NCBI GenBank assembly: GCA_036785375.1
Contig: JAWMAR010000700.1
Location: forward strand, 248,001 to 312,000
DNA from: Leucoraja ocellata
Taxonomy: Eukaryota
Length of the DNA stretch: 64,000 nucleotides
Direction of reading: 5' to 3'
Shown: in pieces, positions 5,701-61,929 of the stretch
Position numbering within the stretch: position 1 is the stretch's first letter
Layout of the letters: each line of letters begins with the position of its first letter
Program-made: the position numbers and the translations under genes
Notes under the pieces: generated by a model
Told to the model about the DNA's origin: nothing
The model's database searches: none
What the model saw: only the letters and a program-made list of their open reading frames with translations

Positions 5701-6238
5701 ATACAGCGGAGAGTGCAGCCTTAAAACAATTGGCTGCTGTAATTAGTTAACCTCCTTTAAATCAAAACAAATAGATATTTAGCCTGCAAGAATTCAGCTA
5801 TATAACCATCCATTACTTTGGGCAAACACGTAATCCAACTTAAATCAACTAAAACATTTCTCATTATAATAAATTCTATAATGTTAAAAAACATTGCAGA
5901 AAGTTCCATGCATTATATTAAATGCATAAATAAAAATACCTGTTTTTTTCAAGAACTAAATGCAGAAAACTGTATTAAATAAGTTACACACGGCATTTAT
6001 TTTGCTTGTTCATATTATCGCATTATTACACTGGCTGAAGTAAAAACATTGTTTAGTACTCTGGCAAATAATCATACTACATAATTAACTTCTAATCATT
6101 GCTTCCAAAACAGAGTGTAACCATAATTTGTGTTAGTTGCTGTTCAACACATTACTGCACAAAGCTAATTTGAACTGAATCTTCAAGGCTATCAGCAGGG
6201 GTCCTACATAATGAGTGACCATTATCACTTAAATATAG

Positions 6239-6409
6239 ATAGTCACAAAATGCTGGAGTAACTCAGTGGGTCAGGCAGCATCTCTGGAGAAAAGGAATAG
6301 GTGACATTTTGGGTCAAAACCCTTCATCAGACCGCCTGACCTGCTGGGTTACTCCAGCATTTTGTGTCTACCTTTTGTGTAAACCAGCATCTGTAGTTGC
6401 TTCCGACAC
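6239..6409. mobile_element. Short fold-back Penelope-derived insertion with 15-bp TSD
   Basis: TSD ATCACTTAAATATAG at 6224-6238 and 6410-6424; inverted arms (cacaaaatgctggagtaac / gttactccagcattttgtg); decayed hammerhead core at about 6299-6333 (-). Confidence 0.85.
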
Positions 6410-6544
6410 ATCACTTAAATATAGCCTGTTCTTCTTATTGCGGTTGCAAAGGCACAAGAAACTGCAATTGCTGGGTTGCACTAAAAAACACAAAGTGCTG
6501 GAGTAAATCAGCAAGTCAGGCAGCACTGCTCAAGAACATGGATA

Positions 6545-6578
6545 GCTGACGTTTCAGGTCAGGACCTTTCTTCAGACT
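6545..6578 (-). ncRNA. Minimal type I hammerhead ribozyme motif
   Basis: Minus strand reads agu CUGAAGA A AGGUC-cu-GACCU GAAAC GUC agc: intact core and complementary stem II arms; stem I weak. Confidence 0.7.
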
Positions 6579-6633
6579 GTAGTGGGAGGAGAAAGCTGGA
6601 AGAGAGGTGGGAGCAGGACAAGAAATAGATGGA

Positions 6634-7101
6634 AGGTACACAAAAAAGCTGGAGAAACTCAGCGGGTGCAGCAGCATCTATGGAGCGAAGGAAATAGGCA
6701 ACGTTTCGGGCCAAAACCCTTCTTCAACAAATTTTTCCATTCTTCTTCAATTACCTCTTTCACTCCTCTTCCTTTTTTTTTTCTTTTTTTTATTTTAGTT
6801 TTCTTTTTCCTTCTTCCCTCTCTCTATTTCATCTATCCCTTTAGCTCTATCTAGTTATAAAAAAAACGAAGAAAAATGCAAAAAGTATTGGAGACAATGT
6901 AATAATAACTGACAATATTATCAATTTAAAAATGTAAGACAGTAATGATGTAATAGATTATGTACCTATCTCCAATAATAAAAAAAAAAAAAAACCCTTC
7001 TTCAGACATCCCTCGCTCCATAGATGCTGCTGCACCCGCTGATTTTCTCCAGCATTTTTGTCTACCTTCGATTTTCCAGCATCTGCAGTTCCTTCTTAAA
7101 C
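6634..7101. mobile_element. Nested fold-back Penelope-derived insertion with 16-bp TSD
   Basis: TSD ACAAGAAATAGATGGA at 6618-6633 and 7102-7117; inverted arms (cagcgggtgcagcagcatctatggagcga / tcgctccatagatgctgctgcacccgctg). Confidence 0.9.
6727..6990 (+). mobile_element. Poly(A)-tailed retroposed insert (probably an L1-type 3' UTR) with 14-bp TSD
   Basis: TSD AAAACCCTTCTTCA at 6713-6726 and 6991-7004; ends aataataaaaaaaaaaa; AAAA at the target start fits L1 endonuclease preference. Confidence 0.8.
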
Positions 7102-7286
7102 ACAAGAAATAGATGGATGCAGGTGAGGTGAGTTTTTCATCGGCCTATATTGGACAAAGGCAGATGAAATGACAAAATGTGAGAATAGGAGCTGAGGATA
7201 GATGAGGCGTGAAATGTGAAGTGAGAGGAAGGAAATTAGGTGGAAGGGGTAAAGAGAGCAACCAAATGAACTACCAGGAGTTGGTG

Positions 7287-7453
7287 TTTAAGAAGGAACT
7301 GCAGATGCTGGAAAATCGAAGGTAGACAAAAATGCTGGAAAAAATCAGCGGGTGCAGCAGCAACTATGGAGCGAGGGAAATAGGCAACGTTTTGGGCAGA
7401 AACCCTTCTTCAGACATAGCACCCGCTGAGTTTCCTCAGCATTTTTGTCTACC
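7287..7453. mobile_element. Nested fold-back Penelope-derived insertion
   Basis: Direct repeat CTACCAGGAGTTGGTG at 7271-7286 and 7449-7464 (partly overlapping the element end); hammerhead core with G12>A at about 7383-7415 (-). Confidence 0.85.
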
Positions 7454-7949
7454 AGGAGTTGGTGGACCAAGAACAACTGTTCAGCAAAATGGTCGCCTAG
7501 TTTACGCTTGGTCTCGCTGATGTAAAGGTGGTCACACCGGCAGCACCAAATGCGGCAGATGCGGTTAGAGGAGGTGCATATCAACCTCTGTCTTACCTGG
7601 TAGAACCATTGGGGTCTTTGGATGGATGAGAGGTAAGAGGTATAGTGCCAGGTGTTTCATCTCCTGTGGTTTCTATATAGCATCATCATCATATCATCAT
7701 ATCTATCTTCTACATTACTAAAAGTCTGTTCTTGACCGGTTTTGGCCATCTGTGCTGCGATTTCAGAGAGAACGCCGCCACCTACGGCCGTCATTTTTGG
7801 CCACTTTGCTCAGAGCCCCCCTCCGCCGCATGTGTGCCAAGGATTTTTCCCGTTGATGAAAATTGACAGATATCTTAATGTTTTTACAAAATTCCCCATT
7901 CTCTCTGCTGCCCCATGCTGGAGGGAGGGGGAGGGACTATAAAACCAGG

Positions 7950-8050
7950 AAGTGGTGTGCCTCAATCAGTCTCTGCAAGTGGTGTGCCTCAATCAGTCTC
8001 TGCAAGTGGTGTGCCTCATTCAGTCTCTGTAAGTGGTGTGCCTCAATCAG
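7950..8050 (+). repeat. 27-bp minisatellite (about 3.7 copies) inside the Helitron
   Basis: Unit AAGTGGTGTGCCTCAATCAGTCTCTGC. Confidence 0.95.
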
Positions 8051-8061
8051 AGCTCTGAATG

Positions 8062-10602: not shown

Positions 10603-12155
10603 GTCAAGTCAAGTCAAGTCAAGAGAGTTTTATTATCATGTGTCCCAGATGGGACAATGACATTCTTACCTGCTGCAGCATAACAGAATATGTAAACATA
10701 ATACAGAACGGGAGATAAAGTTCAGTGTGTCTATAGAGCATGGACCATATATACACAATAAGTAAACAGATTAAGTGCAATAGTAATAATAGACTGTTAT
10801 TGTTCAGAGCTTATTTGATGTTGTGTTTAATGGCCTGATGGCTGTGGGGAAGTAGCTGTTCCTGAACCTGGATGTTACAGATTTCAGGCTCCTGTACTTC
10901 CTTCCCGATACAGAGACATAAGTGTGTGGCCAGGATGATGTGGGTCTTTGATAATGTTGGCAGCCTTTTTGAGGCAACGGCTGCGATAGATCCTTTCGAT
11001 GGTGGGGAGGTCAGAGCCGGTGATGGACCTGGCAGTGGTCACAACTTTCTGCATTATTTTCCGCTCTCTACTGTGCACCTGTAGAAGTTCGAGAAGGCCC
11101 TCCTTGACACACCGACTCTCCATAATCTTCGCATGAAGTAGAGGCACTGATGTGCCTTCTTTACAATTGCATCAATGTGCAGGGATCAGGAAAGATTTTT
11201 GGAAATATGCACACCCAGGAATTTGAATTTGTTTAACCTTTCCACCATATAAACGGGATTGTGGGTCCCTAACCTACCCCTTCCAAAGTTCACAATCAAT
11301 TCCTTGGTTTTGCTGGTGTTGAAAGCTAAGTTATTGTGCTGGCACCATTTGGTCAATCGGTCGATCTCACTTCTCTACTCTGACTCATCAGCATCTGAGA
11401 TTCGTCCAACAACAGTGGTGTCGTCGGCGAACTTGGTGATGGAGTTCATACTATGTCCGGCTACACAGCCATGTGTATAGAGTGAGTACAGCAGGGCGCT
11501 CCTGTGCTGATTGTTATCGAGGATGAAATATTTCTACCAATACGGACAGACTGTGGTCTGTGGATGAGGAAGTCGAGGATCCAATTGCAGAGGGATGCGC
11601 AGAGACCCAGATCCGTGAGCTTGGCAATCCGCTTGGAAGGGATGATGGTATTAAATACCGAGCTGTAGTCTATGAACAACAGCCTGACACACAGGTTTTT
11701 GTTGGCCAAGGGGTCCAGAGCAGAGTGGAGAGCCAGTGAGATCACATCCACCGTTGACCTGTTGTGGCGGTAAGCGAACTGCAGTGGGTCGAGGTTCTTG
11801 TCGAGGTAGGAGTTGATATGCACCATAATCAACCTCTCAAAGCAATTCATCACCACAAACGTTAGTGCCACTGGTCGATAGTCATTGAGACACGTCACCT
11901 TACTCTTCTTGGGCACTGGTATTATTGATACTCTTTTAAAGCAGGTTGGAACATCATACCTCAGAAGTGAGAGGTTGAAAATGTCCACAAAAACTCCAGT
12001 AAGTTGATCTGCACAGGTTTTGAGAACACGTCCGGGTATACCATCAGGTCCAGGCGCTTTCCGAGGGTTCACCCCTCTGAAGGATCTTCCGACGTCGGCC
12101 TCTGTGACTGTGACTGAAATACCATCATGGTGAACGAGCGCTCGGGAAGGCATCC
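10603..12155 (-). mobile_element. Rex1/Babar-clade LINE, 5'-truncated and decayed
   Basis: RT peptide [43 protein letters not shown] (11461-12153); downstream KFADDTTVVG; (CTTGA)n tail at about 10603-10623. Confidence 0.9.
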
Positions 12156-12435
12156 CAATTTCATTTGAAATATGATTTCATCCTATATTTCACGTTATTC
12201 ACGATTAAAGCTTTAAAAATGCCAACTTTCACAAGATTTTTACCGTTAAAATCATTCCTGCCAGCTTACATCACACTTCGATCCAATGTTGTGACACAGG
12301 AACATTCTGAACTTTTCACCTCACAGGAGGGGGAGGGCGAATTGCTATAACAACACGCAGGGCAGGTGCAATTGGGGGCTACGGGTAGGGAACGGGTGCA
12401 TTGGGGGAGCAGTTGGGTCTGCTCTTGGTCTAGTA

Positions 12436-20338: not shown

Positions 20339-20387
20339 TAAATCAGTACGAATTAGCAACACTTCAGCCTCAATGACCATCAGCAAA

Positions 20388-24470: not shown

Positions 24471-24631
24471 CCGTGTCAACTTCCACCCTCCAGCTTAATT
24501 CTGAAGGCTGACAAAACTACTAACAGTCTTGAAAGTTAAAATGTAAAAACTTGTCACCTGAATCAGAGTGATGCAAGCATTTTTCCCAACATGACATGAG
24601 ACATGTATATACAAAACAATCTAATAATCCA

Positions 24632-24734
24632 TCAGTCTGAAGAAGGGAACCTGCCCGAAACACCACTTATCCGTGTTCTCCTGACTCAGTGTTGCCTGAC
24701 CCACTGAGTTACTCCAGCACTTTGTGCCTGTTTT
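24632..24734 (+). mobile_element. Short Penelope-derived insertion beginning at a decayed hammerhead motif
   Basis: cagt CTGAAGA A GGG..CCC GAAAC; TSD AATCTAATA(A/G)TCCA at 24618-24631 and 24735-24748. Confidence 0.8.
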
Positions 24735-25140
24735 AATCTAATAGTCCAGTCTGCATTTCTTCATATTGAAGATAAAAGAAACAAACAAGATACAATTAGA
24801 TTAATGAGCTCTATAATTGGGTTCTCTCTAATGTAAAGAGGTACACATTAGTTCTTCTTTTGGGAATTCATCCTACATTTCTATTGTAATGTTCTTTTGT
24901 CAACTACTGTTTCAGACCCATTTTACTTTGCAGCTACTATTGGCTCTGCTATCATGCACATTTAAAGTTCCCATTTTATATCTTGAGTATACGTACTGCA
25001 TTGAATCCATGCTATCAATGTACCTGCAATGTACCAGTTACTGAAGCCACATATTCTAGAGTCCGTAGATTTCCTTGCCATTTTCATGAAATATTACAGA
25101 TGAACAGAGTAGGCACTAATATGTTAAGTGCCCAGGACCA

Positions 25141-25722: not shown

Positions 25723-27086
25723 GTTGAAACAAATGATAGTTTAACTGTAACACTAGTTTTACTTGACATGTTTACAAGATAGATGGGCACCTTAAGGTTA
25801 CAAAATTATATCACTTGTTTTAAAATCATTGGCAATAAACTCTTGCATTAACTTCTTGACACAGGCATTCAACGTCATATTTTTAACTTAGTCCATAAAA
25901 CCACCAGTACACATATTGTCACTGTCTTAATTAGTTGCAATGAACACTTACTCCCTGCCACTGGTATTAAGTTTTAATGCCAAGACCTTAAACGTTTTGC
26001 ATAGCCCTGTCAAGTGAGTTGATTACAAAATGCAGAATTCACTATCCATGAATAACTATTGAATAATAGTTTAAAGCATACAAACTAAATGGCATTGAAC
26101 CAGTCAATGAACCAGTCCCTTCCCTAGAGGTCAAAGGGATCAGCCTTTGATTATTTTTAAAACAGAGGTAAATAAACACTTTATTGAAGTAATGAAAAGT
26201 TACTGCATGTAGTCAGGAATATGGATTTGAAGGTACTATCAGAGCAGCATCTTCATATTAAATGGCAGAGTGGTTTAGGGCTTAGTCATGCACTTAATTG
26301 AAATGTTCCTCAGAATTTCTGGCATCACAGCGAGTTATTTTCTTGTTCTTCTGAACTCCAGTGAATGTAGGCCAATCTTTTTTATTTGCTGCTCCATTGG
26401 GCAATAGCCTACACCCCATGAATTCCAATAATTGAATGAAATTTTCAGGTAGCATTCTCCCTCTATGGATGTTGATGGAAGCATCCCTTGTAGGTCCTAG
26501 TTTTCGCCCACATCTTATAATTAAGCTTCAGATTGGTTACAGAAACTCGTTTATTCAGTAAAACCTCGGCACAATAAAATAGATCCCCAGGTTACGAACG
26601 TCCAACTTATCAACACAGACTTATGAACAACAAGGTCTCATAGTATTTTCCCTCTTGGACTCCAATGCCTTTTTCTGAAGGCGTGTGCATAATGTGGGAG
26701 AATTCCCATGAAAAATCAACTCCCACACATTTTAAATTATGCCCTCTGGTATTTGAGTATTTGCCTGGTTCATAAATGATAACCTGTAAATTTGGAAGTA
26801 TGACTTAATAAGCAATGACATCAAGCAATAATATTTTTAATATAAAATTCAAACTACTCTGATCAGATGATCTTTACTAAAATGGTTGAGAATTAGTACA
26901 ATTTTAAATCAAAGCATTTAGTTCAGTTTAGTTTTGAGATACGGCATGGAAACATGTCCTTTGGCCCACTGAGTCCACATCGACCATCGATTACCCGTAA
27001 ATGCACGGTTGCTGGAAAAAAATGAACAAAATAATAACCATGTTCTAGAAATACTTAATGAATGAATGGATTCTCAGTTGGCCATA

Positions 27087-27206
27087 ATGTGTAAGAAAGA
27101 ACTGCAGATGCTGGTTTAAATCGAAGGGCGACCCAAAACATCACCCATTCGTTCTCTCCAGAGATGCTGTCTCACCCACTGAGTTATTCCAGCATTTTGT
27201 GTCTAC
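27087..27206. mobile_element. Short rearranged Penelope-derived insertion
   Basis: TSD CTCA(G/A)TTGGCCATA at 27073-27086 and 27207-27220; two pieces of the family terminus in opposite orientation. Confidence 0.8.
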
Positions 27207-28134
27207 CTCAATTGGCCATACATCTTTTTCAAATGCCAATTCATTATACAATGGCGGTAACATAAATTGATATGCTAACATGTCTAAAACAAGTCTAGAT
27301 ACTTGGTTTTAAAATTTGTATTTAGAAGACAATCTCATAGGTTTTATTGTCAAAATAAAAGCAGCAACAACAGAATTAATGACTCTTGAAATCACAGAAT
27401 ACAGTTCTTGATAATTTTCAAGGTACTTCATTTTTCATTCCTGTAATTTTGTGGAATCACAATATCTTAACATGCATTGAGAATTGCATGTTAATTTACT
27501 AATTTAGAATTTATTTTGCCTTATGCAACACTCAGCAAGTGATTTGCACATGGACAAATTTGTTCAGTAATAAGAGACAACAGCTTTATTGTTTTAATAT
27601 TTAACCACACTAATATTTAACCACATGTGGTTGAGAACTCAGAAGACAAACATGAACAATATATAATTGCAATTATTTATTCTTTCAATTAACAATTTTA
27701 GTAATAGAAATATGTAGCCAGCATCCTCCATGCCTATGAAACTGGCAGCAACTGATGTACTTTGTATTTTCCTTCCCCATTACAACTTGCCAAAGAAAAG
27801 TAACGGGATCTGATGAAATAAAATAAAATGGCTATCCATCTAATTGCACAGGCAAAGCTGTTTGATCTACAGTACACAGATCGTGATGATCAAAATTCAC
27901 AGTTAAAAACAAAACTGCCACTGAAAAGTATTCTCCAGAAGATATTCCATAAGCCAACACCGTAGGAGCCAAATGTTGGTTAAATTGTCACTAAATTTTA
28001 AATTAAATACATTTCACAGTAACATTTGTGTTGCTTATTTAGTTTCTGTATAAAAGAATGTGTTTGGAGAAATATGTTTGGCAAAATCAAAACCCAATCA
28101 TACTTCTGTAATTCACAATGCCATAAATTCTGAT

Positions 28135-29325: not shown

Positions 29326-29851
29326 TTAAACTGCCAATCCACAGAAAAGGAACTTTTACTATTATGGAATATAAACCAAAGAAAATGTTGGAAATACTCA
29401 GCAGGGCAAGCAGCATCTGCAGAGACAGAAACTGTAAATGTTTCAAGTCAATAATATATTTTGAAGATCCTAAGCCGCATCCTACCAAGGCAATTAATAT
29501 TTGTATAGCCTTTATCGAGAAAGTGAACGGTCAAAAAACTTTTCAGAGAACAAGTTCTGATGAAAATAGTTTTTTTCAAGCAATGTGAGGAAACTGTGCA
29601 ATTATAAATGGAAACTTTGTACCTTTGGTCAACAGGATATCCACCCCAAAATCTCCTTCAAAAGATAAGCAATGGGATTTCTTGAGTCATTGCAGTACAA
29701 ATGATGAGTGGCCAGGGTTACTAGAAAATGGTTCCCAGTATTTTAACCCAGTAATAAATAAAATAAAGCAATACATATTTTAGTTAAAATAGAGTGCAAG
29801 ATATGAAAGGAACTTGGAGATAATGCCTGGAGATCATCCACCACCCTGACA

Positions 29852-34919: not shown

Positions 34920-35675
34920 CGCACCTGGGTGGGGTATGGGGTAGAGAGGGAGAAAGGGAAAGGGTGAATTGTTACCTAAAATTGGAGAATTCAATGTTCA
35001 TATTTTTGTGTTGGAAGCTACGCAAGCAAAATACGAGATGCTGTTCCTTTAGTTTGCGATGACCTCATTCCAGCAATGGGGGGGAAGATAGCAAAGGACA
35101 TAAAAGGTGAGTAACTGTTATGAGAAGTGGTGGACGGAGTGTAGATACCTTAGATCCTGATTGAGTCCAAACTAGGACAACCGGAAATGGTGCTGGAAGC
35201 CCAGTGACACAAGATGGCAGTGAAGGCAATGGCTGACAAACATGGCTATGGTAGAGAGCCCGGCTCAGAACACAGTCAAAGAGCAGGAGAGCAGCAGGAA
35301 GCACAGAGGGGGAGCTGCGAGAGAATCACATATAACACTCCGCAGAGAGGAGGAGAAAAACTTCTTCAAAGTAGGGCAGAGCATGAGGAGAATTCGCAAT
35401 GGAGCAGTAACTGCAGATATACAAAAAAGTTCTGGAGTAACTTATCGGTTCAAGTTTTGGAGGACATGGGCAGGGATGTTTTTGGTTGGGACTCATCTTC
35501 AGACTGATTATAATAGAGGGGGAAAAGCAGGAATAGAGGCTAGGATAGGATAAAGCCTAGCAAGTGATGGATGGATACAGATGCGGGAGAAGGGGGTGAT
35601 TGGCAGATAGTTGGCCAAAGGCCAGAGATGAAAATAAGACAAAAGGATGTAAGATAAGAGGAGTGAAATGTAAAT
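34920..35675 (-). mobile_element. Rearranged, decayed Penelope-like fragments
   Basis: Minus strand 34970-35060 encodes RKLKEQHLVFCLRSFQHKNMNIEFSNFR (GIY-YIG C-terminus); decayed terminal/hammerhead region at 35430-35510. Confidence 0.7.
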
Positions 35676-41630: not shown

Positions 41631-41984
41631 TCCTATAATCCATTAATCAAATGCTTGAATACACTCAGCAACTGAATCGCCACAGATATCCTCAGTAATT
41701 AATTTTAGACACTTGCCACCTTATGATGTCTGTATTAGCATTTCTGCCCTGAATGAACATCCACTCTGTCCAGGCCGAATAAATCTTGTAAGTTTGACCT
41801 CTGGTTCTAGACTGTCCAACCTGTAAACTATCAAGTCCGCATCTACTCTGCTAAATCCATTTAGCATAAATGTGGAAATGATTAATAAACAATTATTAAC
41901 AGCAAGGGAATTTATTATTAAGACACTATTATTGCATCAAATGCAATTCTTGTGTACTCAAAACTAAATATGGAGGATTCTCCA

Positions 41985-42700
41985 GGAATTGCAGGTGCTG
42001 GAATCTTGAGTAAAACACAGTGCCAGAAGAACTCGGCGGGTCAGGCAGCATATTTAGAAGGAAGGAGAGGGAACATTTCATGTCAGAACCCTTCAGATTA
42101 ATTATAGTACGGGGGAAAAAGCTGGAGTATAGAAGGATGAGGGGGAGACCTCATTGAAACTTACCAAATAGTGAAAGGTCTAGATAGAGTGGTGTTGAGA
42201 TGATGTTTCCACTAGTGGGAGAATCTAGGACCAGAGGTCATAGCCTCAGAATAAAAGGATGTTCCATTTGGATGAGGAGGAATTTCTTTAGTCAGATGGG
42301 GGTGAATCTGTGCAATTCATTGCCACAGAGGCTGTGGAAGCCGAGTCAATGAATATTTTGAAGGCAAAGATTGATAGATTCTTGATTGGTACGGGTGTCA
42401 TGGTTATGGGGAGAAGGCAGGAGAATGGGGTTACGATGGAAAGATAGATCAGCCATGATTGAATGGCAGAGTAGACGATGGGTTGTATGGCCTAATTCTG
42501 CTCCTATTAATTATGAAAAGAGAGGTGGGGCAAGGCAAAGTCTGACAAGTGATTGGAGGATGCAGGTGAGAGGGGGGTTTGGCAGATGGGTGACGCAAGT
42601 GACAAATTAAATGTGGGTGTCAGTTAAGGAGGGTAAAAGAGTGAAATGTAAAGCCAGATGGAGGGTTATAGGAGGGCACAAAAGAACATCTAAAGTGGGT
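41985..42700 (-). mobile_element. Decayed Penelope terminal region with nested plus-strand CR1 tail (about 42123-42515)
   Basis: Similar to 6455-6620 and 7110-7250; the CR1 segment splits the sequence aaagctgga|aaagagaggtgggg. Confidence 0.7.
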
Positions 42701-47004: not shown

Positions 47005-47443
47005 AAGGGCAGATGCTGGTTGACAAATAGTGAACACACAGTGCTAGAGTAACACAAAGATGCAGCAAAATTTTGGAAACGTCATCCCGTCACCCATTCC
47101 TTCTCTCCAGAGATGCTGCCTGTCCCGCTGAGTTAAAGAGTGCCCACGGTAGACTCACGAGTCACTACAGTAAACTCATGGGCTACTACGTTCTTACGAG
47201 TTTAAAAGTTTAAAATTTTTATTTCATGAGTAAAATTGACTCGTGGAAATCTTTCATCATGTTGAAAGATTTTCACGAGTTAACAGGTTTCCCGAGTACC
47301 TGCCGTTTGCGATACAAGTTGCTAAGTTACGTCCACGAGTTCCGACGTTCCCGCTACGTTAATTCTGTGTGATTACCACGAGTTTGATTTGTTTTAAACT
47401 CCGGATCACTTGTGGGTGGACTCGCACCGTGAGACAGGGGTTT
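47005..47443. mobile_element. Penelope-derived short piece (to about 47134) followed by a MITE-like fragment
   Basis: ccattccttctctccagagatgctgcc motif; then CACGAGT-rich interior ending gtgagacaggggtttaa. Confidence 0.6.
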
Positions 47444-47682
47444 AAGACATTAAAAATCAGTTCACTTTTAATAACGACGATAGAAAAATTAAATTGAAGA
47501 ATTGTACCAAAGATGTTCTTTCCATAGCAAAAAGAGTTCAATTTCTTCACACCAATTAACTGTAGCAATGTATCAGGCTACCTTGTAGTAATATTTTATT
47601 ATATTTCTAGAAAATGACAATTGATGAAGGGCGAGTTGTTCATATTTAAAACAATGCCATGGAGCTGAAATCTCCAATATGT

Positions 47683-47716
47683 AGTCTGAAGAAGGGACTC
47701 GACCCGAAACGTCACT
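47683..47716 (+). ncRNA. Minimal type I hammerhead ribozyme motif
   Basis: AGU CUGAAGA A GGGAC-UC-GACCC GAAAC GUC ACU: intact core, GUC cleavage triplet, 3-bp stem I (AGU/ACU), one stem II mismatch. Confidence 0.75.
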
Positions 47717-47776
47717 CATTCCTTCTCTACAGAGATGCTGCCCGTCTCCCTGAGTTACTCCAGCATTTTGTGTCTC
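47683..47776 (+). mobile_element. Short Penelope-derived insertion starting with a hammerhead motif
   Basis: Imperfect TSD TCTCCAATATGT (47671-47682) / TCTTCAAAATGT (47777-47788). Confidence 0.8.
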
Positions 47777-49914
47777 TCTTCAAAATGTGTCCCTTATTAA
47801 AGGAAAATAGAACTGCCACTTCCAAATTTACATTCTGCTTGGCTCAAGGATGTCTTTCACTGTTGAAGTTAGAAAAATCTAACCACAAGAATTTCATGCT
47901 CACAGGAATGACTTAAATCATAGTCAACCAATATTACCTTTCTCAAGGTAACACAAGGAATATTTCAGGGACACAACCATTCAAAAGACTATTCTTCCTG
48001 CCTCGATTTATCAAGAAAAAAATTAAGAATATGACAGGGTTTGAAGTCATGTTTTCTTCCTCTCTGGCTCAATGCCAAACTCCGCTGCCATCTTGAGCTT
48101 ATAATGATTAAGTATTCATTCATGAACAACCATAATAAAGTATAGCTAAGACAGAGCAAAATTAGTTCAGATAGGAACATAATAAATCTAATTCTGTTCC
48201 CCAGTCTGTTGCTAAATCAAAATACGTTTGATTTATAGTAATGACTATGCTACTGGGAACGCAAATGAGATCCAGGAAACCACTTGTGAGTTCCAATGCT
48301 CGTCACCAATGAGTGCAATTTTATTTTTAGAAGTGGCAAAAACCACTTCATCTTCAACAAATTGTGTACAACATTTTCTTTGAAATGCAAAGAAAACACT
48401 TATGTATGTTTCTAGTTTTTTAAATCTAATTTAACATGTAAAGGGCACTGATATTGGTATTTAATGCAATGCACTTTTTTTTTAATTTCAGCTCATTAAA
48501 ATTAACTGGCAGCTGGCCCTCTATTGAAAGACTCATCATCATAATGGTCAGGATGGGAGTTATTTACAGTTTGGTCTACTGTTTCAGAAATATTGCTGCA
48601 GTTCCCAAATGACACATTTAAAAAGCATGATTAATTCTGAAACACCTTAAAAATACTGCAATCTAATGACCTGGGGAGAATTTATGAGATAGTTCAAACT
48701 GTTTATCTGAAATTATAATCCTGAGCAAATTGCTGCGTTTTTTTAAAGCAATCTTTTCAAAGTTAGAATCGACTGCAAATGGCAATGCAACATAATTATG
48801 TAGCTAGGAGTTCCAGGAAAAGTCTCAAGTTTAAAATAAAGGCACTTGTGGAATAGAAAAGAGTCTCCAATAAAGATTAACGAGGAACTTTGCAGCAGCA
48901 GCAAAAGCTCACAAACCAAGCTATTGTATTCTGTGATACAATTGTTATTTGTATTACCTTTTATAATTATATTTTATGTTCTGGAAGCCACTGAGTAACT
49001 TTACACAGTACAGCCCTATGGAATGCAAGACTGCAAATACAATTAGATGAACTAAAGTAGTATTATATTGTTGGTTAATAGAACACTGGAGGTGCTAGTA
49101 AGCAGTATTATGGGAATTAAAAAAAACATTGTAGCTAGGGAAGGCTGCTGTAAAAAACAGCAGAGTGACAAAGGTGACATAGTGGAGTAGCAGTCGAGTT
49201 GCTGCCTTACAGCGCTGGAGACCTGGGTTTGACCCCGACTAAGGGTACTGTCTGTACGGAGTTTGAATGTTCTCCCCGTGACAACCTGCCACACAATCAC
49301 TGATTTACTCATACAGAACTTGACTTGGTAGTACTGTATTCCGGAAATGGTAGTTATGAGACTGGTGATCAAATCACGGTGGCAGATGAACGGAAATGAA
49401 TCTGCATTTTAAGGTACACCTCAATTGTGTTTGAAAAGAAACGATTTAATGATGTTGGTGACAATGACGATGTATTGATAACTTATTAACACAAACGCAG
49501 GAGATAAACTCATGTAATAAAACACATTTGCCCTGGAAAGGGTGGGGTAAACTTAATAAAACGTAGAACACAGTATACTGTAGATGATATTGAGGAGAAA
49601 GGTCATCAATAAGGATATTTAATAAAAAGGGATGGATGAAATGAATTTACTGTAGGGAATCAAACCAACATTTACTAGTTACGTTTTTGACCCACACACT
49701 TATTTCTTCCTATCTTGACTCCATTCTTCATCCTCTCTCCTAGTCTCATCCCACTGCATTTGTGGGATTACTGATGCCCTCCATTACTATGATGATTTCC
49801 TGGTCGTAACTGAGTCTTTGTCAACATGGATACTAAATTCTTTGCACCTCCATCTCTCGGCAAATGGTTAGAAGGGCCTTCACGTCTCCCACGAACAAAA
49901 GCTCAACCAATGAT

Positions 49915-51304: not shown

Positions 51305-52128
51305 TCAAAAGTCAAGGGTGTTTAATTGCCATATGTACCAATACCAAAACAATGAAATTCTCACTTGCAGTAGCAAAATAGGCCTGTAAACTCAATAACC
51401 ATAAATATAGAGTAAACTAAAATTCAATATGTTAAATACCCCAATATTTGAGCACGACAAAAAAAAACCTTTAGTGCAACTAAAGATAGTAGCTAGTGTT
51501 GTACAGATCATGAGTATGATGTTTGTTGGCAAGAAGCTTTTCTGGAATCTGGCCATGGTTTTCACCTTCTTCCTGATGATAGAAGTGAAAAGACTGTGGT
51601 CAGGGTGGTGTGGATATCTGATGATACTGATGGGCTGTTTGAGGCAGTCCTTCCTATAGAGCCCCTCGATGGTGGGCAGCTCAGTATCTGTGATGAACCG
51701 GGCAGTGTCCATCACTCTCTGTAATCTTGGTTACCTGTAGACGTATTTGTCGACCTTGGTAAATCTTCCAAGCAATTAGAGCATTGATGGAGAAATAATG
51801 AACTGCAGATGCTGGTTTACCATAAACTTCACTAATACTCATTCTTCAGAGATGTTGCCTGACCCGTTGAGTTACTCTGGCACTTTGTGTCTATTTTCTA
51901 TAAAGAGCATTGATGAGGTTTCATTACAATTACATCAATGAGCTGAGCCCAGACAGATATTCAGATATTGCACTCTTAGGAATTTGAAATTGTTAACTCG
52001 CTGCACAGCCAACCCATCGCTGAAGCCACCTTCATGGATCTTCAGCTTTTTCCTTCTAAAGTTCACAATCAGCTAATCTGTTTTACTGATCATTGTTCCG
52101 ACACCATTCAATCTGATTTCCAATCTCC
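51305..52128 (-). mobile_element. Old Rex1/Babar-like 3' fragment with nested Penelope-derived insert (51790-51903)
   Basis: ARFITDTELPTIEGLYRKDCLK peptide; nested TSD AGAGCATTGATG at 51778-51789 and 51904-51915. Confidence 0.75.
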
Positions 52129-52130: not shown

Positions 52131-53160
52131 GGTCAGCAGCTTTTTAGGTTGCCAAATGACAGTTTAGGTGGTCATTCAGGACGGCTTGCATGACGCGTGT
52201 GATAATGTGCTCAGACGAAGTGCGTAGTTCCCAGTCGGAATTATGCTCAATGAAGCATTCACATATTATTTCTGCTTCAAATAAAGTCACAAACTAAACA
52301 TATTCACCAATCAAGACATGATATATACCACAATGACATGCAGCAAAATTATAATACAGTAAATCAACTCTTTCCACATTATTTCTTTCCACTTCCAAAC
52401 AAAAATGTGGTTGGATTATTCAGTGTATGATCAACTTGTGTCAATAAATCGTGACCATGATAGCATATATGCTTAACCATGCACACTACAGATTGATGCA
52501 AGCATGTTTTCTGTGAAGGAACAAAATTACCATAACATGGCCATAGCATGGGTCGTTATTGCTATTGGTACAGAAACACACTCGCTTCCCACATAATTTA
52601 TCCACAACAAAAATACCCAGGTTGCAAGGAATTTTCTAAAGGCATTTTATGATAATAGCTGTTAAAAACTGACTATACCCATCTGACAGGGTAAACATTA
52701 CACTAACTAACATGAGATGGCCAAAGGACATAATTGCAGCAAATGTTCTTTTGGTAATATATTTAAAGGTGTCAAGACGCCACATTACCGGATATTCAGA
52801 TTAGATGTATGTGTTGTGAAAAGCAATGAAGATACCCAGTTTGTAAGCAACAAATTAAAATAAAATTGTTGATAAACGCTTTTTCCATCATTCCCACTTC
52901 AGAATTAACATTAAATTTCAACTGAAATATCTCCTGACCAAATTTGTGATGTATATGACTGATTGTAGAAGTAAAACTGGATAAATCCAACACATAATTG
53001 TGAATGTTGCTCATTAAATAACTACAGTACTGATGTAACCCGCTGAAGAAGGGTTTTGGCCCGAAACGTTGCCTATTTCCTCCGCTCCATAGATGCTGCC
53101 ACACCCGCTGAGCTTCTCCAGCAATTTTGTCTACCTACAGTACTGACACTCCATATTAAC
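52131..53160 (-). mobile_element. Partial inverted copy of the 31556-33725 DNA transposon
   Basis: Reverse complement aligns closely with about 32750-33680. Confidence 0.9.
53034..53134 (+). mobile_element. Short Penelope-derived insertion with hammerhead motif (53043-53070)
   Basis: CUGAAGA A GGGUU-UU-GGCCC GAAAC GUU; perfect TSD CTACAGTACTGA at 53022-53033 and 53135-53146; empty site in the paralog near 32764-32775. Confidence 0.9.
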
Positions 53161-53167
53161 ATCGAAG

Positions 53168-54814: not shown

Positions 54815-56214
54815 ATGGCGATGGCGGGGGGCTCGGCCGAGGGCGAAGAGCTACGCAGTAGCGACATCAGCAGCGGAAGCGAGGACATCTGAACATGAGC
54901 ATCATGTTGACTTGGACTGGGACAGCTTTGGTATCTCGGTTCAAACTGGGCCCAGATGTCCAGGGGAGTAATTACGAAGGCTATGAATGCCCTTCTGGTA
55001 GGGGGGCTATTGTCTCTTCCGAGCTCGAGAGGGAAGGTTGAGATGATATTGAAGACCCGGGAGGATGTGGCCAAAGTGTTGGAGAGGGGGATTTCAGTGG
55101 GGGGGTCCATATGCAGGTGACCCATGGGTGTCCAGGGTGAGACCGGTTCTCCTGCGGAGTTGCCCCACATGTATTCCGGATGCGACACTCATTCCACACC
55201 TGTCTCAGATTGGGGAGGTGCGGTCTAAGTGCTTTAGGCTCATGCACCCTGGGGGGGACCCGGAAGAAAAAGGGATTTATAGTTTCAAAAGGAGGGTGTT
55301 CGTGAAGGTGGGGGAGGGGGAAGGTGATGAGGGAGTTTCGAGGTGAGTGTAGGGTCTACCCAGAACCGTGCGTTGGAGTTGGGGAAAGGCACGGTGTCAT
55401 GCGTGCGATGGTTATGGACATCTCCGAAAGGACTGTCCTGTTCAAGGGGTCGCTGCTAGAACTTCTCGCGCAGCGGCCCAGGAATGCACTGCTGGCCCAT
55501 CAGGGGTGCTCGTCATGTCTCGGAGGGGCGGGGTGGAATCGCTGACCTGGCAGGGTCTGCAGTTTCAGCCTTGGGGACCCAGGGCAGTAAAGGGCCACCG
55601 CCCTCCACATCCTGAACCTGAGGGGGTGGCTGAAGGTGAGACACAGGGTGAGGGGGGAGGGGAGTGGGAGCAGCAGAAGAAGAAGAAGAGGAATAGGCAG
55701 ATAAAGACCACCCAAGCGAGTCAAAAGCAGGAAGGTGTGCTACTGCCGAGTGTGGAGATCACCAAGGGGCGCCTGTCAGCTCCGGGGGGTCCAGAGTGCA
55801 ACTGCCGTGGCCAAGCAAGGAGCGGAGGTGGCTCTGAAGGGGGTAGCGAAGGCAAAACGCGTGGGTGGTAAGGAGGCGGGGGGTAGTGTGGAGGAGGAAG
55901 ACACTCTCCTTATGGAGGTTACCACACCGCCGCATGCTAGTGGGACTAAAAGGAGGATTGGGCCTGGTGAGAAGAGCAGGGACGCGAGTCCAAAGTTAGG
56001 GGGGTGGAGTTTTTCCAGACCTTCCACCACTGATGTGGTTGGAGGTCAGGAAATGACGTTGTCTGGGTTGGAGGTTGAGCTTCTACCTCAGGGATCTCTC
56101 GAGGGTACCACAGGGTCAGGTGATGGGGTAGACCCCTCTGGAGTTGTGTCCTCTGGGCGGGGGGATGTCTTTTGTCTCAGGGGCCCTCCGAGGGGGGATC
56201 TTGTCGTGTGTTGA
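54815..56214 (+). pseudogene. Tx1 ORF1, frameshifted; 3' limit uncertain
   Basis: RAKSYAVA, IPDATLIPHLSQIGEVRS, IYSFKRRVFV, CHACDGYGHLRKDC in shifting frames. Confidence 0.7.
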
Positions 56215-57159
56215 TCTTGGTTCCCCTGGGGTGTGTCTTCTGGGTCGGAGGAGGTCCCCCTCGTTTCAGAGGCCTACTGAGGGTGTTAGCACGCAGGAGG
56301 GTGGGGTAAGCTCCCCTGGTAGTGCGGACCTGAGACGGGGGATGAGCAGAGTCAGACCAAGGCGGGGGGGTCGGGGGGAGTGGTGTTCCAATCAGTGCTC
56401 AATTTGAGAGCCAATGGTGGTTCTGAGCTGTGTATTGTATTGCCGACTGATTTAGCAGGGAGGGGGGAAAATCTAGTGGAGAGCCTCTGGGTGTTGCCAG
56501 TGGACGGGGTGCTTTCGGTGCTGTGGAGGTCGGAGTTACTTCAGGCAGCGACCTTCTTTCAGTTTCTGGGGGTGCCAGTTTACCACAGACGTGGGGTGCC
56601 TCTTATTTTCTCTTCCCCGGGCCCAGATATAGAGGGTGAGGACAGAGCGCAGGAGCCCAGCCAGTCAGTGGGCTGCGTGACGTGGAGAGGGGGCTTCGGG
56701 ACCCTTCCCCGGCATTGATCCTGGGGGTGGTATCATGCCGGAGGAGAGGGAGAGTGGTGGGGCCGATTTGTGTGGAGGGGTTGGTGAAATCCCAGAGAGC
56801 TCTGGTTTTTCGATTTCTGAAAATGACCTTGGGGATGCTGAGCATGTTGTGTCAGGTGCGAGTAACTTGGACGACGGCCCAGATTCATTTTTTGGTTCTC
56901 ATGGAAGTGTAATCTGCGAAGTGAGGGAATTTTTAAAAACAAGCCGCACTAACAGAACAAGGTTAGAGGCCGCTAAGAGACGCTGGGCTGATCTGTCGTC
57001 CTTAGTTAAAAATCTCGAGGCTATCCTTGCGACCAAAGATAGTGATCTTCTTGGCTCTGAGCAGTGTCAGTTTAGGGACTTTTGGAGTTCCTAAAAAGAG
57101 AGGGGGCTACAGAGCCCAGGAGGAGAAGTATGAGGATTTCAATTTAATGTATCAGTGCA

Positions 57160-59414
57160 TTCACGCTAGCTACCCTAAACTTAAACGGGAGTAGAGCGAG
57201 TTTTCGCAGGTTCCAGCTTTTATCGGTCCTTAGGGAGGGGAAATTTGCAGTGTGTTTTCTGCAGGAGACGCATACTGTTGTCAAGGATGAACCCACTTGG
57301 AGGTTGGAGTGGGAAGGAGAGGTCTATATGAGTCATCTTAGCTCAAATTCGAGTGGGGTGGCCATTCTGTTGGCTCAGAATTTCTTGCCTAATATTATAA
57401 AAAGTGCAAGAAGTTGTGCCAGGACGTTTGCTCCATCTGGCCATGAGCCTGGATGGCATGCCGTTGCATTTCATTAACGTGTATGCCCCCAGCTCTGGCA
57501 CGATGCAGGCCGGCCTAATTCAGGAAGTGAATGCTCTGTTGAGCACTATTGATCGGGGAGAGTGTGTCTTCCTTGGGGGGACTTTAACTGCACACTTGAG
57601 GTGCGAGATCGTTCTGGTACTCAGTGTGCCCCTGCTGTAGCAAAGAAGCTGAGAGGGTTGATTGACTCTTTTGAGTTGGTTGATGCGTGGCGGACCTCAA
57701 CCCAGACTCCACTGCTTTTTCGCGGAGGTCTGAGGGCGGTGGTTCCCGCATTGATCGAATATATATCTCCCGAGCGTTTGTTTCCCGTGTCTCAGCGGCC
57801 TCAATGCAGCTGGTGCCATGCTCGGACCACTGTCTGGTGCGTGTGGATTTTAATCCAGCACGCGTTCAGGCTGGGTCTGCGTATTGGCACTTTAATAACC
57901 GGCTGCTGGAGGATCGGTGTTTCCGGGAGTCATTCACTCGGTTTTTGGGTGCGGTGGAGAGAGAGGCAGAGATGCTTCTCTTCCCTAAGGCAGTGGTGGG
58001 ATGTGGGGAAGCTCACATCCGTATTTTTTGTAAGGAATACACGTGGGGGTCGACCGGGCGGCGGGACTCAGCGGTTGAGAAGCTTGAGAGGGAGCTGATG
58101 GACGCAGAGTCTCGCCTGGGTCAGGTTGGAGGTGACTCTTGCGCATGGGGTTGTGTTTCATGAGAAGAAGGAAGCCTTGAGGAACCTGCAACTTGAGCGG
58201 TCCCGGAGGCGCTTACGTGAGGGCGCGGTCCAGATGCTGCACGATCTGGATCGAGCTTCGCCTTTCTTTTTCTCTCTGGAGAAAGGGCGGGGAGCCCGCT
58301 AGCAGCTCGTGGAGCTGCTCGCAGATGATGGCTCCTCTGTCACAGATCCGGAGAGGATTAGTGCCTTGGTCAGGTCCTTTTATGGTTCCCTGTTCTCCGC
58401 AGGTGGAGTAAGCGGGGAAGCTCAGCAGGACCTGTGGGAGAGTCTACCGGTTATAGATAGGGAGGTGGCCGATCTTCTTGATGGCCCGTTATCTTTGGAG
58501 GAGTTGACTTGTGCAATGCATCAGCTCAGGAGGGGTAAGTCCCCCGGGCTGGATGGGCTGACGGTAGAGTTTGTTAGAGCCTTCTGGGGTATCCTGGGGG
58601 GTGATTACATGTTGGTTCTGGGGGAGAGCCTGGCGACAGGGGAGATGCCCCTTTCGTGGCGTCGAGCAGTGGTTGTCCTGCTGCCCAAGAAGGGGGAACT
58701 CCGCCTGCTGAAAACTGGCGCCCGGTCTCTCTCCTATGCACAGAGTATAAAGTATTTGCACGGGCGATGGCAAATCGCCTGGGCTCTGTGCTGTCTCAGC
58801 TGATTCACCATGACCAGTCTTTACACAGTCCCTGGTCGGTCCATTCAGGATAACATCCACCTGGTTAGGGACCTGATTCATCTAGCACAGGGAACTGGTC
58901 AGTCAGCTGCGTTTCTGTCTCTTGATCAGGAGAAGGCTTTTGATAGGGTAGAGCATGAATACCTGTTCGGAACGTTGCAAGCGTTTGGATTTGGACCGCA
59001 TTTGTGGCCCGGGTTCGCCTCTTGTATGCTGCAGCGGAGTGCCTTGTGAAGGTTAATGGTGCGTTGTTGGTTCCCTTTCATTTTGGGAGGGGGGTCCGTC
59101 AGGGGTGCCCATGTCAGGTCAGTTGTACTCGGTCTGTGTGGAGCCGTTCCTGTGTCTTCTTCGGAGGAGGTTGACAGGCCTGGCCCCTACCGGGCCCAGG
59201 GGTGGAGTTGGTTCTTTCGGCCTATGCGATGATGTACTACTTATGTTCACCGATCCTGGTGACCTGCGGAGGATGCGTGATTGCCAGAAGATTTCCTCGG
59301 ATGCATCTTCTGCCAGGATTAATTGGAGCAAGTGCTCTGGACTTTTAGTGGGTCAGTGGCAGCTGGACTCCTGCCAGAGGGAGATGGCAATGTTTTGCGT
59401 GGAGCACCACGCAC
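57160..59414 (+). pseudogene. Tx1 ORF2 (APE-RT), frameshifted, cut by the gap
   Basis: ATLNLNG, FLQETH, GDFNC, SRIDRIY, SDH, YWHFNN, KSPGLDGL, NWRPVSLL, SLDQEKAFDRVEH, GVRQGCP, shifted Y(A)DD. Confidence 0.9.
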
Positions 59415-59614
59415 NNNNNNNNNNNNNNNNNNNNNNNNNNNNNNNNNNNNNNNNNNNNNNNNNNNNNNNNNNNNNNNNNNNNNNNNNNNNNNNNNNNNNN
59501 NNNNNNNNNNNNNNNNNNNNNNNNNNNNNNNNNNNNNNNNNNNNNNNNNNNNNNNNNNNNNNNNNNNNNNNNNNNNNNNNNNNNNNNNNNNNNNNNNNNN
59601 NNNNNNNNNNNNNN
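59415..59614. other. Assembly gap
   Basis: Run of N. Confidence 1.
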
Positions 59615-59742
59615 CACATGCGGCGGAGAGGGGCTCTGAGTGATGGTGGCCTAAAATGACGGCCGTAGGTGACGGCGTACTCTCGGAAACCGCAGCACAG
59701 AAAGCCAAAACCGGTCAAGAACAGAGTTTTAGTAATATATAT
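59615..59742 (-). mobile_element. Helitron 5' end (family of 7709-9134)
   Basis: Reverse complement tattactaaaactctgttcttgaccggttttggc matches 7713-7747. Confidence 0.8.
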
Positions 59743-60095
59743 AAGAAAGATGAAGAAAGCTAGTGTAGAGCTATAGAGGGAAAATAAATAAGGAAAGAGA
59801 AAAAGGAAACTATAAGCTAATAGAAAGGGGAGGGTGAGAAAAAAATAGAAAGATTACCAATAACACAATTTTGGAGATAGGTCCGTAGATTATAGAGTGT
59901 AATTCAATTTATAAAAGATAAAATTTGTTTACTGTATAAATGATTGCATTTTATTTTTGCTTTGCAGTATTAGTGGATGATTACACTTTTATAAGTTCAA
60001 TAAAAATAAATATATAAATCACATTCTTGAACAGATTCAATCCAGGCATCTTTATTTTGTTTGTATTGTAGGACAACAAAAATATGTTGAGTGAT

Positions 60096-60620
60096 TACCA
60101 CTGGGGTGTCAACTATCCAAGTAGAATATGAGGTGCTGGCTCCTCCAATTTGCGGTGGCTTCTTACAATCTCTTTTGGAACTCTAAAGGGCCTGTCCCAT
60201 TTTTACAACCTAATTCACGACCTCTGCTGAGTTTGCCCTTGAGTCATACTCGCAGCATGGTCGTCATGAGGTCGTAGGTAGGTCGTAGGTAGGTCGTGAT
60301 GCTAGTCATAGATATTTGTGGCATCAAGTAGGTCGGGGTGTTTTTCTAGCCTGATGACAAATGCCCACGAGTAAAAAGGTTGTGAATTAGGTTGTGAAAG
60401 TGGGACAGGCCCTTTAGAGTTCCAAAGAGATTGTAAGAAGCCACCGCAAATTGGAGGAGTAGCACCTCATATTTTACTTGGATAGTTTACACCCCAGTGG
60501 TATGAACATTGACTTCTCCAATTTCAGGTAGTCCTTGCTTTCTTCCCCCTTCCCAGCTCTCCCATAGCTCACTGTCTCCGCCTCTTCATTTTTTCTTCCC
60601 GACCTCCACCCCCACAGCAG
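60096..60620. mobile_element. Fold-back Penelope GIY-YIG C-terminal fragment (palindrome 60096-60502)
   Basis: Plus-strand HRKLEE*HLIFYLDSLHPSGMNIDFSNFR at about 60440-60530; about 90-bp inverted copy at 60096-60183. Confidence 0.85.
60186..60414. mobile_element. MITE (AAGGGCCTGTCCCA TIR) flanked by TA
   Basis: TIRs of about 30 bp; TA at 60184-60185 and 60415-60416. Confidence 0.9.
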
Positions 60621-61613
60621 TACATGTATAATTCTCTGCAGTACATGTATCAGCGGTGGAGTATGTGGCCCAAATTTGTAACCCTAAATTCCTAACTTTA
60701 CATAATGCTAATTCATAATAGTTATGCATAGTTCTATGTTTGATACAAAATAAAGTATCGTAACTGCTCAGCTACAAAAAATAGCAGCTGCCATCAGATA
60801 ATTTCATCGTTTTGCTTATTTTTTATAATTAGGCAGCTTTGAAAGCTAATGTTAGAGACCTTGAGGAAGAAAAGTCATGATTATGTGAGTGATGACAATG
60901 TTAAAAATATGGTAAAGTGCTACATCTGAAATTCTCCAAATACTCTGTTGTGCTGTTGACAATGCATCTGCTCGTCCCAAAAGGACTTAACTTAGCAATG
61001 CCAAATCTGAAAAGTCATGATCATAAATCTCTGTCTCAGTTTTTACTATTGTTCTTTCGTTCTGCTAATTTACATTTTTCATTCATTTTGAAAGGTCATA
61101 TCACAGCTTGAAAGTATAACAGCTTGAACAATTATGCACATCAAAATGTTAAATGATTATGCCATTTTGATGTCTGTGCAGTCCATATGTAGCAAGGGAA
61201 TAGATAATAACACCAATTTAAAAGTATCTTTTAATTTTCTCCTGGCTCGCTTATTACAGTTTATTTGATTAATATATATATATATATATATCAGCCAATT
61301 GGGTCTAAATAAAATGCATAACAGAACCTGGTAAAATAATAGCCCATGTGCCAGCTTCATCTGTCCTATTGCATAAGTAATTGTGATTTTGGAGCTGGAT
61401 GGCATGATTTACTTTGGTATTCGGGAGCTTTATATTTTTCATTTATTAGTTTTTCACATCGTGGACTAAATTGCTGCTGCTTGTTTTTCCCAACCCAATC
61501 TCTAAAACATAATTATCATTGCTTCCATCTCTCCTCAACCTACTATCTCAATTTCTGGGAAATAGTACTGACGAATGTGTACTACAAACCCACTGGACTC
61601 GCAAAGTCATCTT

Positions 61614-61740
61614 AGGTAGACAGAAATGCTGGAGAAACTCAGCGGGTGGGGGCAGCATTTATGGATGCTGCCTCACCAGTTGAGTTTCTCCAGCATATTT
61701 GTCTATCTTCGATTTTTCCAGCATCTTTTCTTAAAGAACC
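61614..61740. mobile_element. Fold-back Penelope-derived insertion lacking the hammerhead segment
   Basis: TSD CAAAGTCATCTT at 61602-61613 and 61741-61752; arms atgctggagaaactca / tgagtttctccagcat. Confidence 0.85.
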
Positions 61741-61929
61741 CAAAGTCATCTTGATCACACTTCATCCTGCCAGTTGTTACATCTGGTAATATTACTTGAA
61801 TGTTACTACTGATACATTTCCTGTTTGCCTCAGCCAAGGTTTCTCTCCACCTCCCAATGATGTCCAACCCATTTCTCATACTTCTCTTCTAAACACCTCT
61901 GCTTTTCTGGTCTCTTTGGCCCCCATCTT

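Follow-up and report, generated by a model that had tools for sequence, protein, structure and literature searches.

Short insertions carrying the terminus of a Penelope-like retrotransposon in Leucoraja ocellata, and the position of their 5' ends relative to a minimal hammerhead motif

Insertions of endonuclease-bearing Penelope-like elements (PLEs) are described as carrying a tail of 30-40 bp, often at one end only, and as including inverted 5'-truncated copies (PMC8557442, PMC3846280), for whose junctions self-priming on an antisense template has been proposed (PMC3846280). The protein of a lizard PLE, a predicted dimer, nicks both strands, requires RNA downstream of the sites at which its reverse transcriptase (RT) starts, and begins synthesis at two internal sites whose spacing corresponds to the tail; cleavage by the hammerhead ribozyme was dispensable in vitro for the same element (PMC11167929). 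Minimal type I hammerheads of metazoan PLEs occur as solitary motifs and as opposite-strand pairs 100-700 bp apart, which were ascribed to truncated PLEs (PMC4209133). In this study we analyse nine short insertions (E1 to E9) in a single 64-kb window of Leucoraja ocellata (contig JAWMAR010000700.1, positions 248,001 to 312,000), from which every element copy considered here is taken. The insertions are probably dead-on-arrival copies that contain the final ~95-130 nt of a Penelope-like retrotransposon with an endonuclease.

Anatomy of the insertions

The nine insertions, which start at 6239, 6634, 7287, 24632, 27087, 47683, 51790, 53034 and 61614, are real and lie where a preliminary description of the window had placed them. 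All of them had been described as bounded by direct repeats of 12-16 bp. In a blind search for target site duplications (TSDs), with the best score at 60 random sites of equal search space as the null, this holds for eight (12-16 bp, 0-1 mismatch, score 10-16; null maximum 9), whereas the 12-bp repeat of E6 (47683-47776), with 2 mismatches and a score of 4, falls within the null range. The 16-bp TSD of E3 (7271-7286 / 7449-7464) overlaps the element end by 5 nt.

A single profile of the terminus matches all nine insertions, the main arms with E-values of 1e-11 to 1e-37; the profile was built from nine arm segments, so that the values of several seed arms are partly given by construction. In the reversed window it produced only two matches (E 1.1 and 4.3). 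The common terminus reported previously is thus confirmed, although the list of its carriers was incomplete: the profile adds five loci (6450, 29379, 35403, 41978 and 47005), three of which extend 160-480 nt upstream beyond the hammerhead core. Together, the 14 loci comprise the 21 arms analysed below, a count from which the weak profile hits at 13676 (E 0.002), 62749 (E 0.04), 37840, 10205 and 34366 were excluded. The TSD search gave no result above the null for the host copy of E2 and E3 (6450) or for the copies at 35403, 41978, 47005, 60442 and 34975.

Arm positions are counted relative to C3 of the hammerhead core, with the cleavage site at +28. Most arms end near +90 to +95 or near +120 to +129 (one ends at +101 and one old copy at +110), i.e. 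at two preferred 3' ends ~34 nt apart, here called the short end and the tail end, whose spacing is the tail. Six of the nine insertions include an inverted second arm, as had been stated for most of them, but only four (6239, 6634, 7287 and 61614, i.e. E1, E2, E3 and E9) are fold-back forms, with arms overlapping by 35-60 nt. Long DNA hairpins of -36 to -41 kcal/mol were obtained for the three overlapping elements that were folded (6239, 7287, 61614). In 27087 (E5) and 51790 (E7) the arms abut, meeting at about +92 and +100 with little overlap and no fold-back (DNA fold -11 and -6 kcal/mol). One tail end is paired with one short end in all six inverted copies of the list, for which the chance is 0.016 under a 50:50 choice; the broken copy at 47005 has one tail end, the other end being lost. 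No identical fold-back junctions were found at unrelated loci: all seven inversion junctions differ, those of E2 and E3 matching only in the left side plus two bases. The features are listed here with coordinates, strand where one applies, and description.

6224..6424: E1, with a 15-bp TSD (6224-6238 / 6410-6424)
6239-6332, minus: left arm of E1, reaching from short end to -2; G12 decayed; C3 at 6330
6333-6409, plus: right arm of E1, +55 to tail end
6450..7665, minus: older host copy of E2 and E3; 5'-truncated Penelope-like element with an intact minimal hammerhead (C3 at 6575) and tailed terminus; no convincing TSD
6618..7117: E2, with a 16-bp TSD (6618-6633 / 7102-7117)
Left arm of E2, minus: short end to -2; hammerhead split by a later insertion
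6713..7004, plus: secondary insertion inside the E2 hammerhead, AT-rich and poly(A)-ending; 14-bp TSD (6713-6726 / 6991-7004)
7009-7101, plus: right arm of E2, +35 to tail end
7271..7464: E3, including its TSD
7287-7415, minus: left arm of E3, tail end to -2; C3 at 7413
7419-7453, plus: right arm of E3, +58 to short end
24618..24748, plus: E4, one arm, -5 to short end; C3 at 24637; U16.1 lost; 14-bp TSD with 1 mismatch
27073..27220: E5, inverted tail-only arm 27087-27127 abutting the plus arm; 14-bp TSD with 1 mismatch
27123-27206, plus: plus arm of E5, about +5 to short end; 5-nt microhomology at the junction
29379..29451, minus: old terminus copy, decayed; no TSD; not in the preliminary list
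35403..35673, minus: old copy reaching about 160 nt upstream beyond the core; C3 at 35502; not in the preliminary list
41978..42694, minus: old copy reaching about 200 nt beyond the core, with a piece of another repeat at about 42134-42540; not in the preliminary list
47005..47135: another inverted copy, absent from the preliminary list; minus tail-end arm; plus arm begins at about +19 and has lost its 3' end; no clear TSD
47671..47788, plus: E6, one arm, -3 to short end; intact core, C3 at 47686; predicted cut after 47713; weak TSD
51778..51915: E7, plus arm (+16 to about +101) directly next to an inverted arm consisting of the tail only (about 51790-51821); 12-bp TSD
53022..53146, plus: E8, one arm between core and short end; C3 at 53043; core intact, GUU triplet; 12-bp TSD
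61602..61752: E9, fold-back lacking the core; minus-strand left arm between short end and +43, plus-strand right arm between +47 and tail end; 12-bp TSD

At the 5' junction of E8 (window 53034-53046), nine extra bases are joined via a 9-nt match to internal site 53103. This is probably a tiny head-to-tail template jump at CTGA, i.e. a miniature tandem, and a jump of this type could be a way in which a pseudo-long terminal repeat (pLTR) starts. At several priming ends of E1 to E9, the first 2-5 bases of the TSD (5 nt at E3) carry on the sequence of the element, which may hint at short primer-template pairing.

Both E2 and E3 lie inside the 553 bp of the older Penelope copy, which make up 0.9% of the window (post-hoc p about 0.003), and a third insertion, E1, is only 25 bp from its end; this clustering at 6224-7665 may point to a local hotspot or to homing into PLE sequence already present. 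The tail arms of E2 and E3 (7009-7103 and 7284-7378), about 180 bp apart, are 98% identical, have a private base in common and resemble each other more than their own partner arms. Gene conversion between the inverted neighbours and a common source RNA are possible explanations. The AT-rich, poly(A)-ending insertion at 6713-7004 is present in a single copy in the window and does not belong to the Penelope terminus family; its TSD starts with AAAA, which we take to be an L1-like signature.

Penelope parentage and proposed origin

Both E2 and E3 sit within a copy of the same terminus that is older and lies on the minus strand (6450-7665). With the nested insertions set aside, this copy shows the decayed remains of a GIY-YIG endonuclease (about 7468-7665), then a 3' region rich in pyrimidines, followed by the hammerhead and the terminus. 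The terminus is thereby linked to a GIY-YIG fragment, and the insertions are therefore of Penelope origin, as had been suggested. A 63-amino-acid (aa) peptide of this host copy has 100 protein matches at E<=1e-3, and its endonuclease reached E 1.5e-17 in tblastn; a Pfam search with the decayed endonuclease peptide returned no family. Relatives of 827 and 816 aa show matches to RVT_1 and, at the C-terminus, to GIY-YIG, both below the Pfam curated cut-offs, together with DKG and CxxxxCxxC motifs. A telomerase-like RT was found only in the related proteins P0012 and P0077 and not in the window, and a PDB sequence search with P0012 gave no matches. In a follow-up search with the close match P0003, two of the three returned proteins were named from Hypanus and Mobula. 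A CX2-5CxxC linker before GIY-YIG marks Neptune and Nematis rather than Poseidon (PMC8557442); the closest relatives have this linker, which is decayed in the copy of the window. By this motif, which Nematis shares, the parent element may be of Neptune type.

Additional Penelope endonuclease fragments are found at 34975-35058, 60442-60528 and, weakly, 62075-62284; the last of these may pair with the weak terminus match at 62749-62770. At 60442-60621, a C-terminal endonuclease fragment is followed by a short pyrimidine-rich 3' region, which appears to stop at CAGT where the core would begin, and has no TSD. Several predicted proteins (P0001, P0004, P0006 and P0010), one of them named mucin-2, show the PLE endonuclease joined to unrelated sequence (FGGY kinase, DUF4518, zinc ribbon), and are probably gene-model read-in of PLE copies, or exonisation. 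A word-seeded protein search gave four candidates, none significant, and transporter-like matches in the ESM Atlas had a low recognition score and were disregarded. Of two scans of prokaryotic genome contigs for stray copies, the first returned none and the second three matches over a 21-24 nt pattern only, which we attribute to chance.

The forms described above could be explained as follows. The PLE protein would nick both target strands, and the staggered nicks would give rise to the TSD. Each nick would prime a complementary DNA (cDNA) of its own, with synthesis starting at the tail site for one and at the inner site for the other, and inverted copies would result from joining the two cDNAs head to head; we infer both the staggered nicks and the priming from two ends. 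Abutting arms (E5, E7) might originate from two primers on one RNA, overlapping arms (E1, E2, E3, E9) from two templates or a template that was read again, and single-arm copies from events with one primer. In a weaker step of this scheme, cDNAs that pass the hammerhead would often stop 0-5 nt upstream of it, where the template ended or was blocked, either because a transcript start was reached from 5'-proximal start sites or because a protein was bound to the 3' splice site of unspliced RNA. Self-cleavage is not what determines these 5' ends.

Several points weigh against this scheme. The in-vitro data on PLE proteins come from the lizard Poseidon element, which belongs to another clade. The window contains no PLE RT fragment and no full-length or partial-tandem PLE, so that the parent is visible as fragments only; its sole tandem-like trace is the possible 9-nt head-to-tail jump of E8, and a partial tandem is not expected of truncated copies. 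Self-priming on antisense RNA may also be compatible with the inverted junctions.

The hammerhead motif and the 5' ends at its edge

By its layout of CUGANGA, an extra A, a 4-bp helix II, GAAA, a palindromic ACGU and GUC or GUU, the motif is the known minimal type I PLE hammerhead, as the preliminary description had recognised, and self-cleavage is predicted. A strict descriptor of the minimal hammerhead finds three sites in the window (47686, 53043 and 6575) versus none in each of 40 shuffles; a relaxed one gives five matches versus a shuffle mean of 0.1. Six of the nine insertions contain the core, intact or decayed, which agrees with the earlier count. It is intact and uninterrupted only in 47686 (E6) and 53043 (E8), that of 6634 (E2) is split by the later insertion, and three further cores are decayed. 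In the host copy helix II is closed by A-U. The expected excess of conservation in the core over its neighbours was also observed: across nine core-spanning rows, 93 of 99 cells (94%) are conserved, as opposed to 121/162 just downstream and 282/342 further on (75-82%; Fisher p 5e-5 and 0.004, with cells that are not independent); the right arm of 47005, which is misaligned, was omitted. This reads as selection, and since G12 is lost at its CpG in individual copies (3 of the 9 that span the core), we place this selection in the source elements. The helices are paired in 71% of cells as compared to 17-46% when slid (9 sequences). Helix II is weak (-1.7 to -3.7 kcal/mol) and paired in 86% of cells.

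Other results are less favourable. Helix covariation did not exceed that of shuffles (282/500; 9 sequences), nor did six whole-unit RNA folds outperform theirs (z -1.2 to +1.4). An Rfam scan of the window at E up to 1 gave two weak microRNA matches and no hammerhead; we do not regard this miss as counter-evidence because the motifs are minimal and lack helix III.

The 5' breakpoints of the 21 arms are -5, -3, -2, -2, -2, 0, +5, +14, +16, +19, +35, +43, +47, +55, +58, +66, +92 and +98, and the three long copies reach beyond -160. That copies truncate or flip near the CUGA core, as had been noted, is borne out by six of the nine core-reaching arms, which stop within -5 to 0. The position-specific binomial p for a stop in this interval is 3e-7, for a position chosen from the same data; after correction for scanning, p is 0.002-0.045, according to which truncation rate is assumed. 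A non-random placement of 5' ends near the core is thus supported. The edge is set by the flanking TSD in E4, E6 (weak TSD) and E8 (nine extra bases), and by the start of the other arm in E1 to E3. The six core-ending copies require five changes on the tree, form a single group in 0 of 200 bootstrap trees, and represent at least two sequence types that are 62-82% identical to each other.

Some features of the data count against a hotspot. The breakpoints were placed by eye from local alignments with a precision of 2-3 nt, the cluster is built on six events only, and the tree is weakly resolved, with one strongly supported branch. When the E2 arm is dropped, because E2 and E3 are possibly not independent given their nearly identical, neighbouring tail arms, the scan-corrected p becomes 0.017-0.16. 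Since the three long copies are old, with mostly 42-74% identity to the short ones, they do not show the sequence upstream of -5 in the younger subfamilies.

The edge is most simply explained by an RNA boundary, either a transcript start or a blocked 3' splice site. We weigh these two about equally, and taken together they appear to us evenly balanced against the other explanations. The edge appears to resemble an initiator motif (TCA+1GT). A pyrimidine tract and CAG directly precede -1 in two of the three long copies. In D. virilis Penelope, the 5' edge of helix I is where an intron ends (PMC4209133); this intron spans 416-491 and the start is at 371 (PMC2377424), and C3 would lie at 496, assuming the same numbering. 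A spliced template was set aside: there is no exon-1 sequence in common beyond two bases, and E4 has four bases upstream of the putative acceptor. A more specific version, which we consider doubtful, is that the 5' edge of the hammerhead is the transcription start itself, set by an internal promoter overlapping the ribozyme. RT acting from 5'-proximal start sites to the RNA end would then yield complete 'solo termini' of 95-130 nt in large numbers instead of random truncations, and a dimer priming both nicked strands would yield the one-tail inverted forms. If so, the transcription start and replication cycle of PLEs would be mapped to the base by genomic fossils, and some of the solo termini might move again, as a class resembling SINEs (short interspersed elements).

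It is also conceivable, if rather unlikely, that 5' truncation is simply random and that the cluster combines chance, ascertainment of short TSD-bounded copies and loss of homology upstream of the core. The three unlisted copies that extend far beyond the core fit this explanation, as does the p of up to 0.16 at a high truncation rate without the E2 arm, and the upstream sequence of young subfamilies is not represented in the window. However, the edges of E1 to E4, E6 and E8 are fixed by a TSD or by the other arm and not by loss of homology, none of the 21 arms ends between -6 and -160, and the fitted hazard of about 0.007-0.008 per nt yields a scan-corrected p of 0.002, which becomes 0.017 when E2 is left out.

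A SINE-like short element, with master copies that start at -5 to -2, an internal promoter and a transcript of its own that the PLE protein mobilises in trans, would explain the 5' edge common to six copies, its likeness to an initiator motif, and the distribution of ages in the window, where the young copies are without exception short and the long ones all old. In addition, the pLTR of D. virilis Penelope holds an internal promoter (PMC2377424), pLTRs can mobilise sequence in trans (PMC3846280), and non-autonomous PLEs are known in Chlamydomonas (PMC8557442). We nevertheless consider such masters improbable. With at least two sequence types and no single clade, several masters with the same edge would be required; there is no junction in common; G12 decays at its CpG in a third of the core-spanning copies; and the template of the lizard PLE must reach well past the RT start sites (to +172 of the open reading frame; PMC11167929), a part lacking in these copies. 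No tRNA-, 5S- or 7SL-type Rfam match was found in the window at E up to 1; A and B boxes were not scanned separately.

About equally improbable is stalling of the RT on RNA structure (hammerhead helix II or a dimer) instead of at an RNA end or splice site. Four further arms do end inside the hammerhead (+5, +14, +16 and +19), and helix II is mostly paired, but an RT moving 3' to 5' would get to -2 only after opening helix II and the 3' strand of helix I, helix II is weak, and the whole-unit folds equal those of shuffles. Least probable by far, and largely refuted, is a hammerhead-processed retrozyme whose units are generated by self-cleavage and circular RNA: three copies have an intact core with self-complementary ACGU, and non-LTR retrozymes derive from pLTRs and are present in the sole cartilaginous fish sampled (bioRxiv 10.64898/2026.07.22.740005), but retrozymes are tandem units (PMC7229834; bioRxiv 10.64898/2026.07.22.740005) and no tandem array of the unit occurs among 28 TRF rows for the window, no arm ends at the cleavage site (nearest +19 and +35), the motif is of the minimal PLE type and not of the canonical retrozyme type (PMC7229834), and the units, 94-171 bp long, show head-to-head inversions and are not head-to-tail monomers. 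The SINE- or retrozyme-like fold-back family proposed in the preliminary description is thus not upheld: tandems are absent, the seven junctions differ, no arm ends at the cleavage site, and the core-ending copies are not one clade. In addition, the combination of inversion and tail is already described for ordinary PLE insertions (PMC8557442, PMC3846280).

Among the other repeats of the window is a broken long terminal repeat (LTR) retrotransposon on the minus strand (37363-40875; Pfam matches to protease, RT and integrase), into which another repeat is inserted at about 38269-38636. Many copies of a long interspersed nuclear element (LINE) with an RT domain (RVT_1), presumably CR1/L2-like, are present at 118-2385, 19268-20339, 28285-29328 and elsewhere, and a different LINE RT lies at 11461-12177. 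A decayed long non-LTR element at 54700-59659, which we take to be Tx1/L1-like, has an apurinic/apyrimidinic endonuclease-like domain (Exo_endo_phos E 4e-4).

Comparison with known systems

Twin priming of L1 generates TSD-flanked insertions with an inverted segment. The insertions described here resemble its products in their TSDs, the inverted segment and, in E5 and E7, the abutting arms with microhomology. Unlike L1 insertions they have no poly(A) tail and two fixed internal start sites, and in four cases the arms overlap, which is impossible by twin priming on one template. With non-LTR retrozymes (PMC7229834; bioRxiv 10.64898/2026.07.22.740005) they share small size, the lack of coding capacity, a type I hammerhead and a relation to pLTRs. 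In contrast to the head-to-tail tandems of retrozymes, which are processed to circles, they are dispersed as single or head-to-head units whose ends ignore the cleavage site. The motif itself agrees with the minimal hammerheads of PMC4209133 in CUGANGA, the extra A, a helix II closed by G10.1-C11.1, GAAA, a palindromic two-base helix III, GUC or GUU and a short helix I, and differs in that helix II has only 4 bp; in two of the supplement files of that paper, no entry for shark, skate, Leucoraja or Callorhinchus was found. The literature searched, mostly without subscription papers and in the portions available, described neither this cartilaginous-fish family nor a stop of 5' ends where the hammerhead begins.

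Taken by themselves the insertions are ordinary PLE debris; they are of value for what they preserve of a replication cycle that is poorly understood. Extrapolated from 14 loci in 64 kb, one genome probably holds thousands of such TSD-bounded mini-insertions, which would allow tests of two-ended priming at two internal start sites and of what sets the 5' stop at the hammerhead. The anatomy of the element is known, and the 5' stop at the hammerhead edge is one modest, testable mechanistic lead. The closest match is with insertions of endonuclease-bearing PLEs (Neptune/Poseidon; PMC8557442, PMC3846280, PMC11167929), with which the copies analysed here share the C-terminal GIY-YIG of the parent, a hammerhead in the terminal repeat, a tail of 30-40 nt at one end only, a head-to-head inverted 5'-truncated copy and TSDs. 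They differ from the described insertions in being extremely short, with two arms of 35-130 nt, in TSDs of 12-16 bp as compared to 8-10 bp in the Adineta examples, and in 5' ends that cluster at the edge of helix I.

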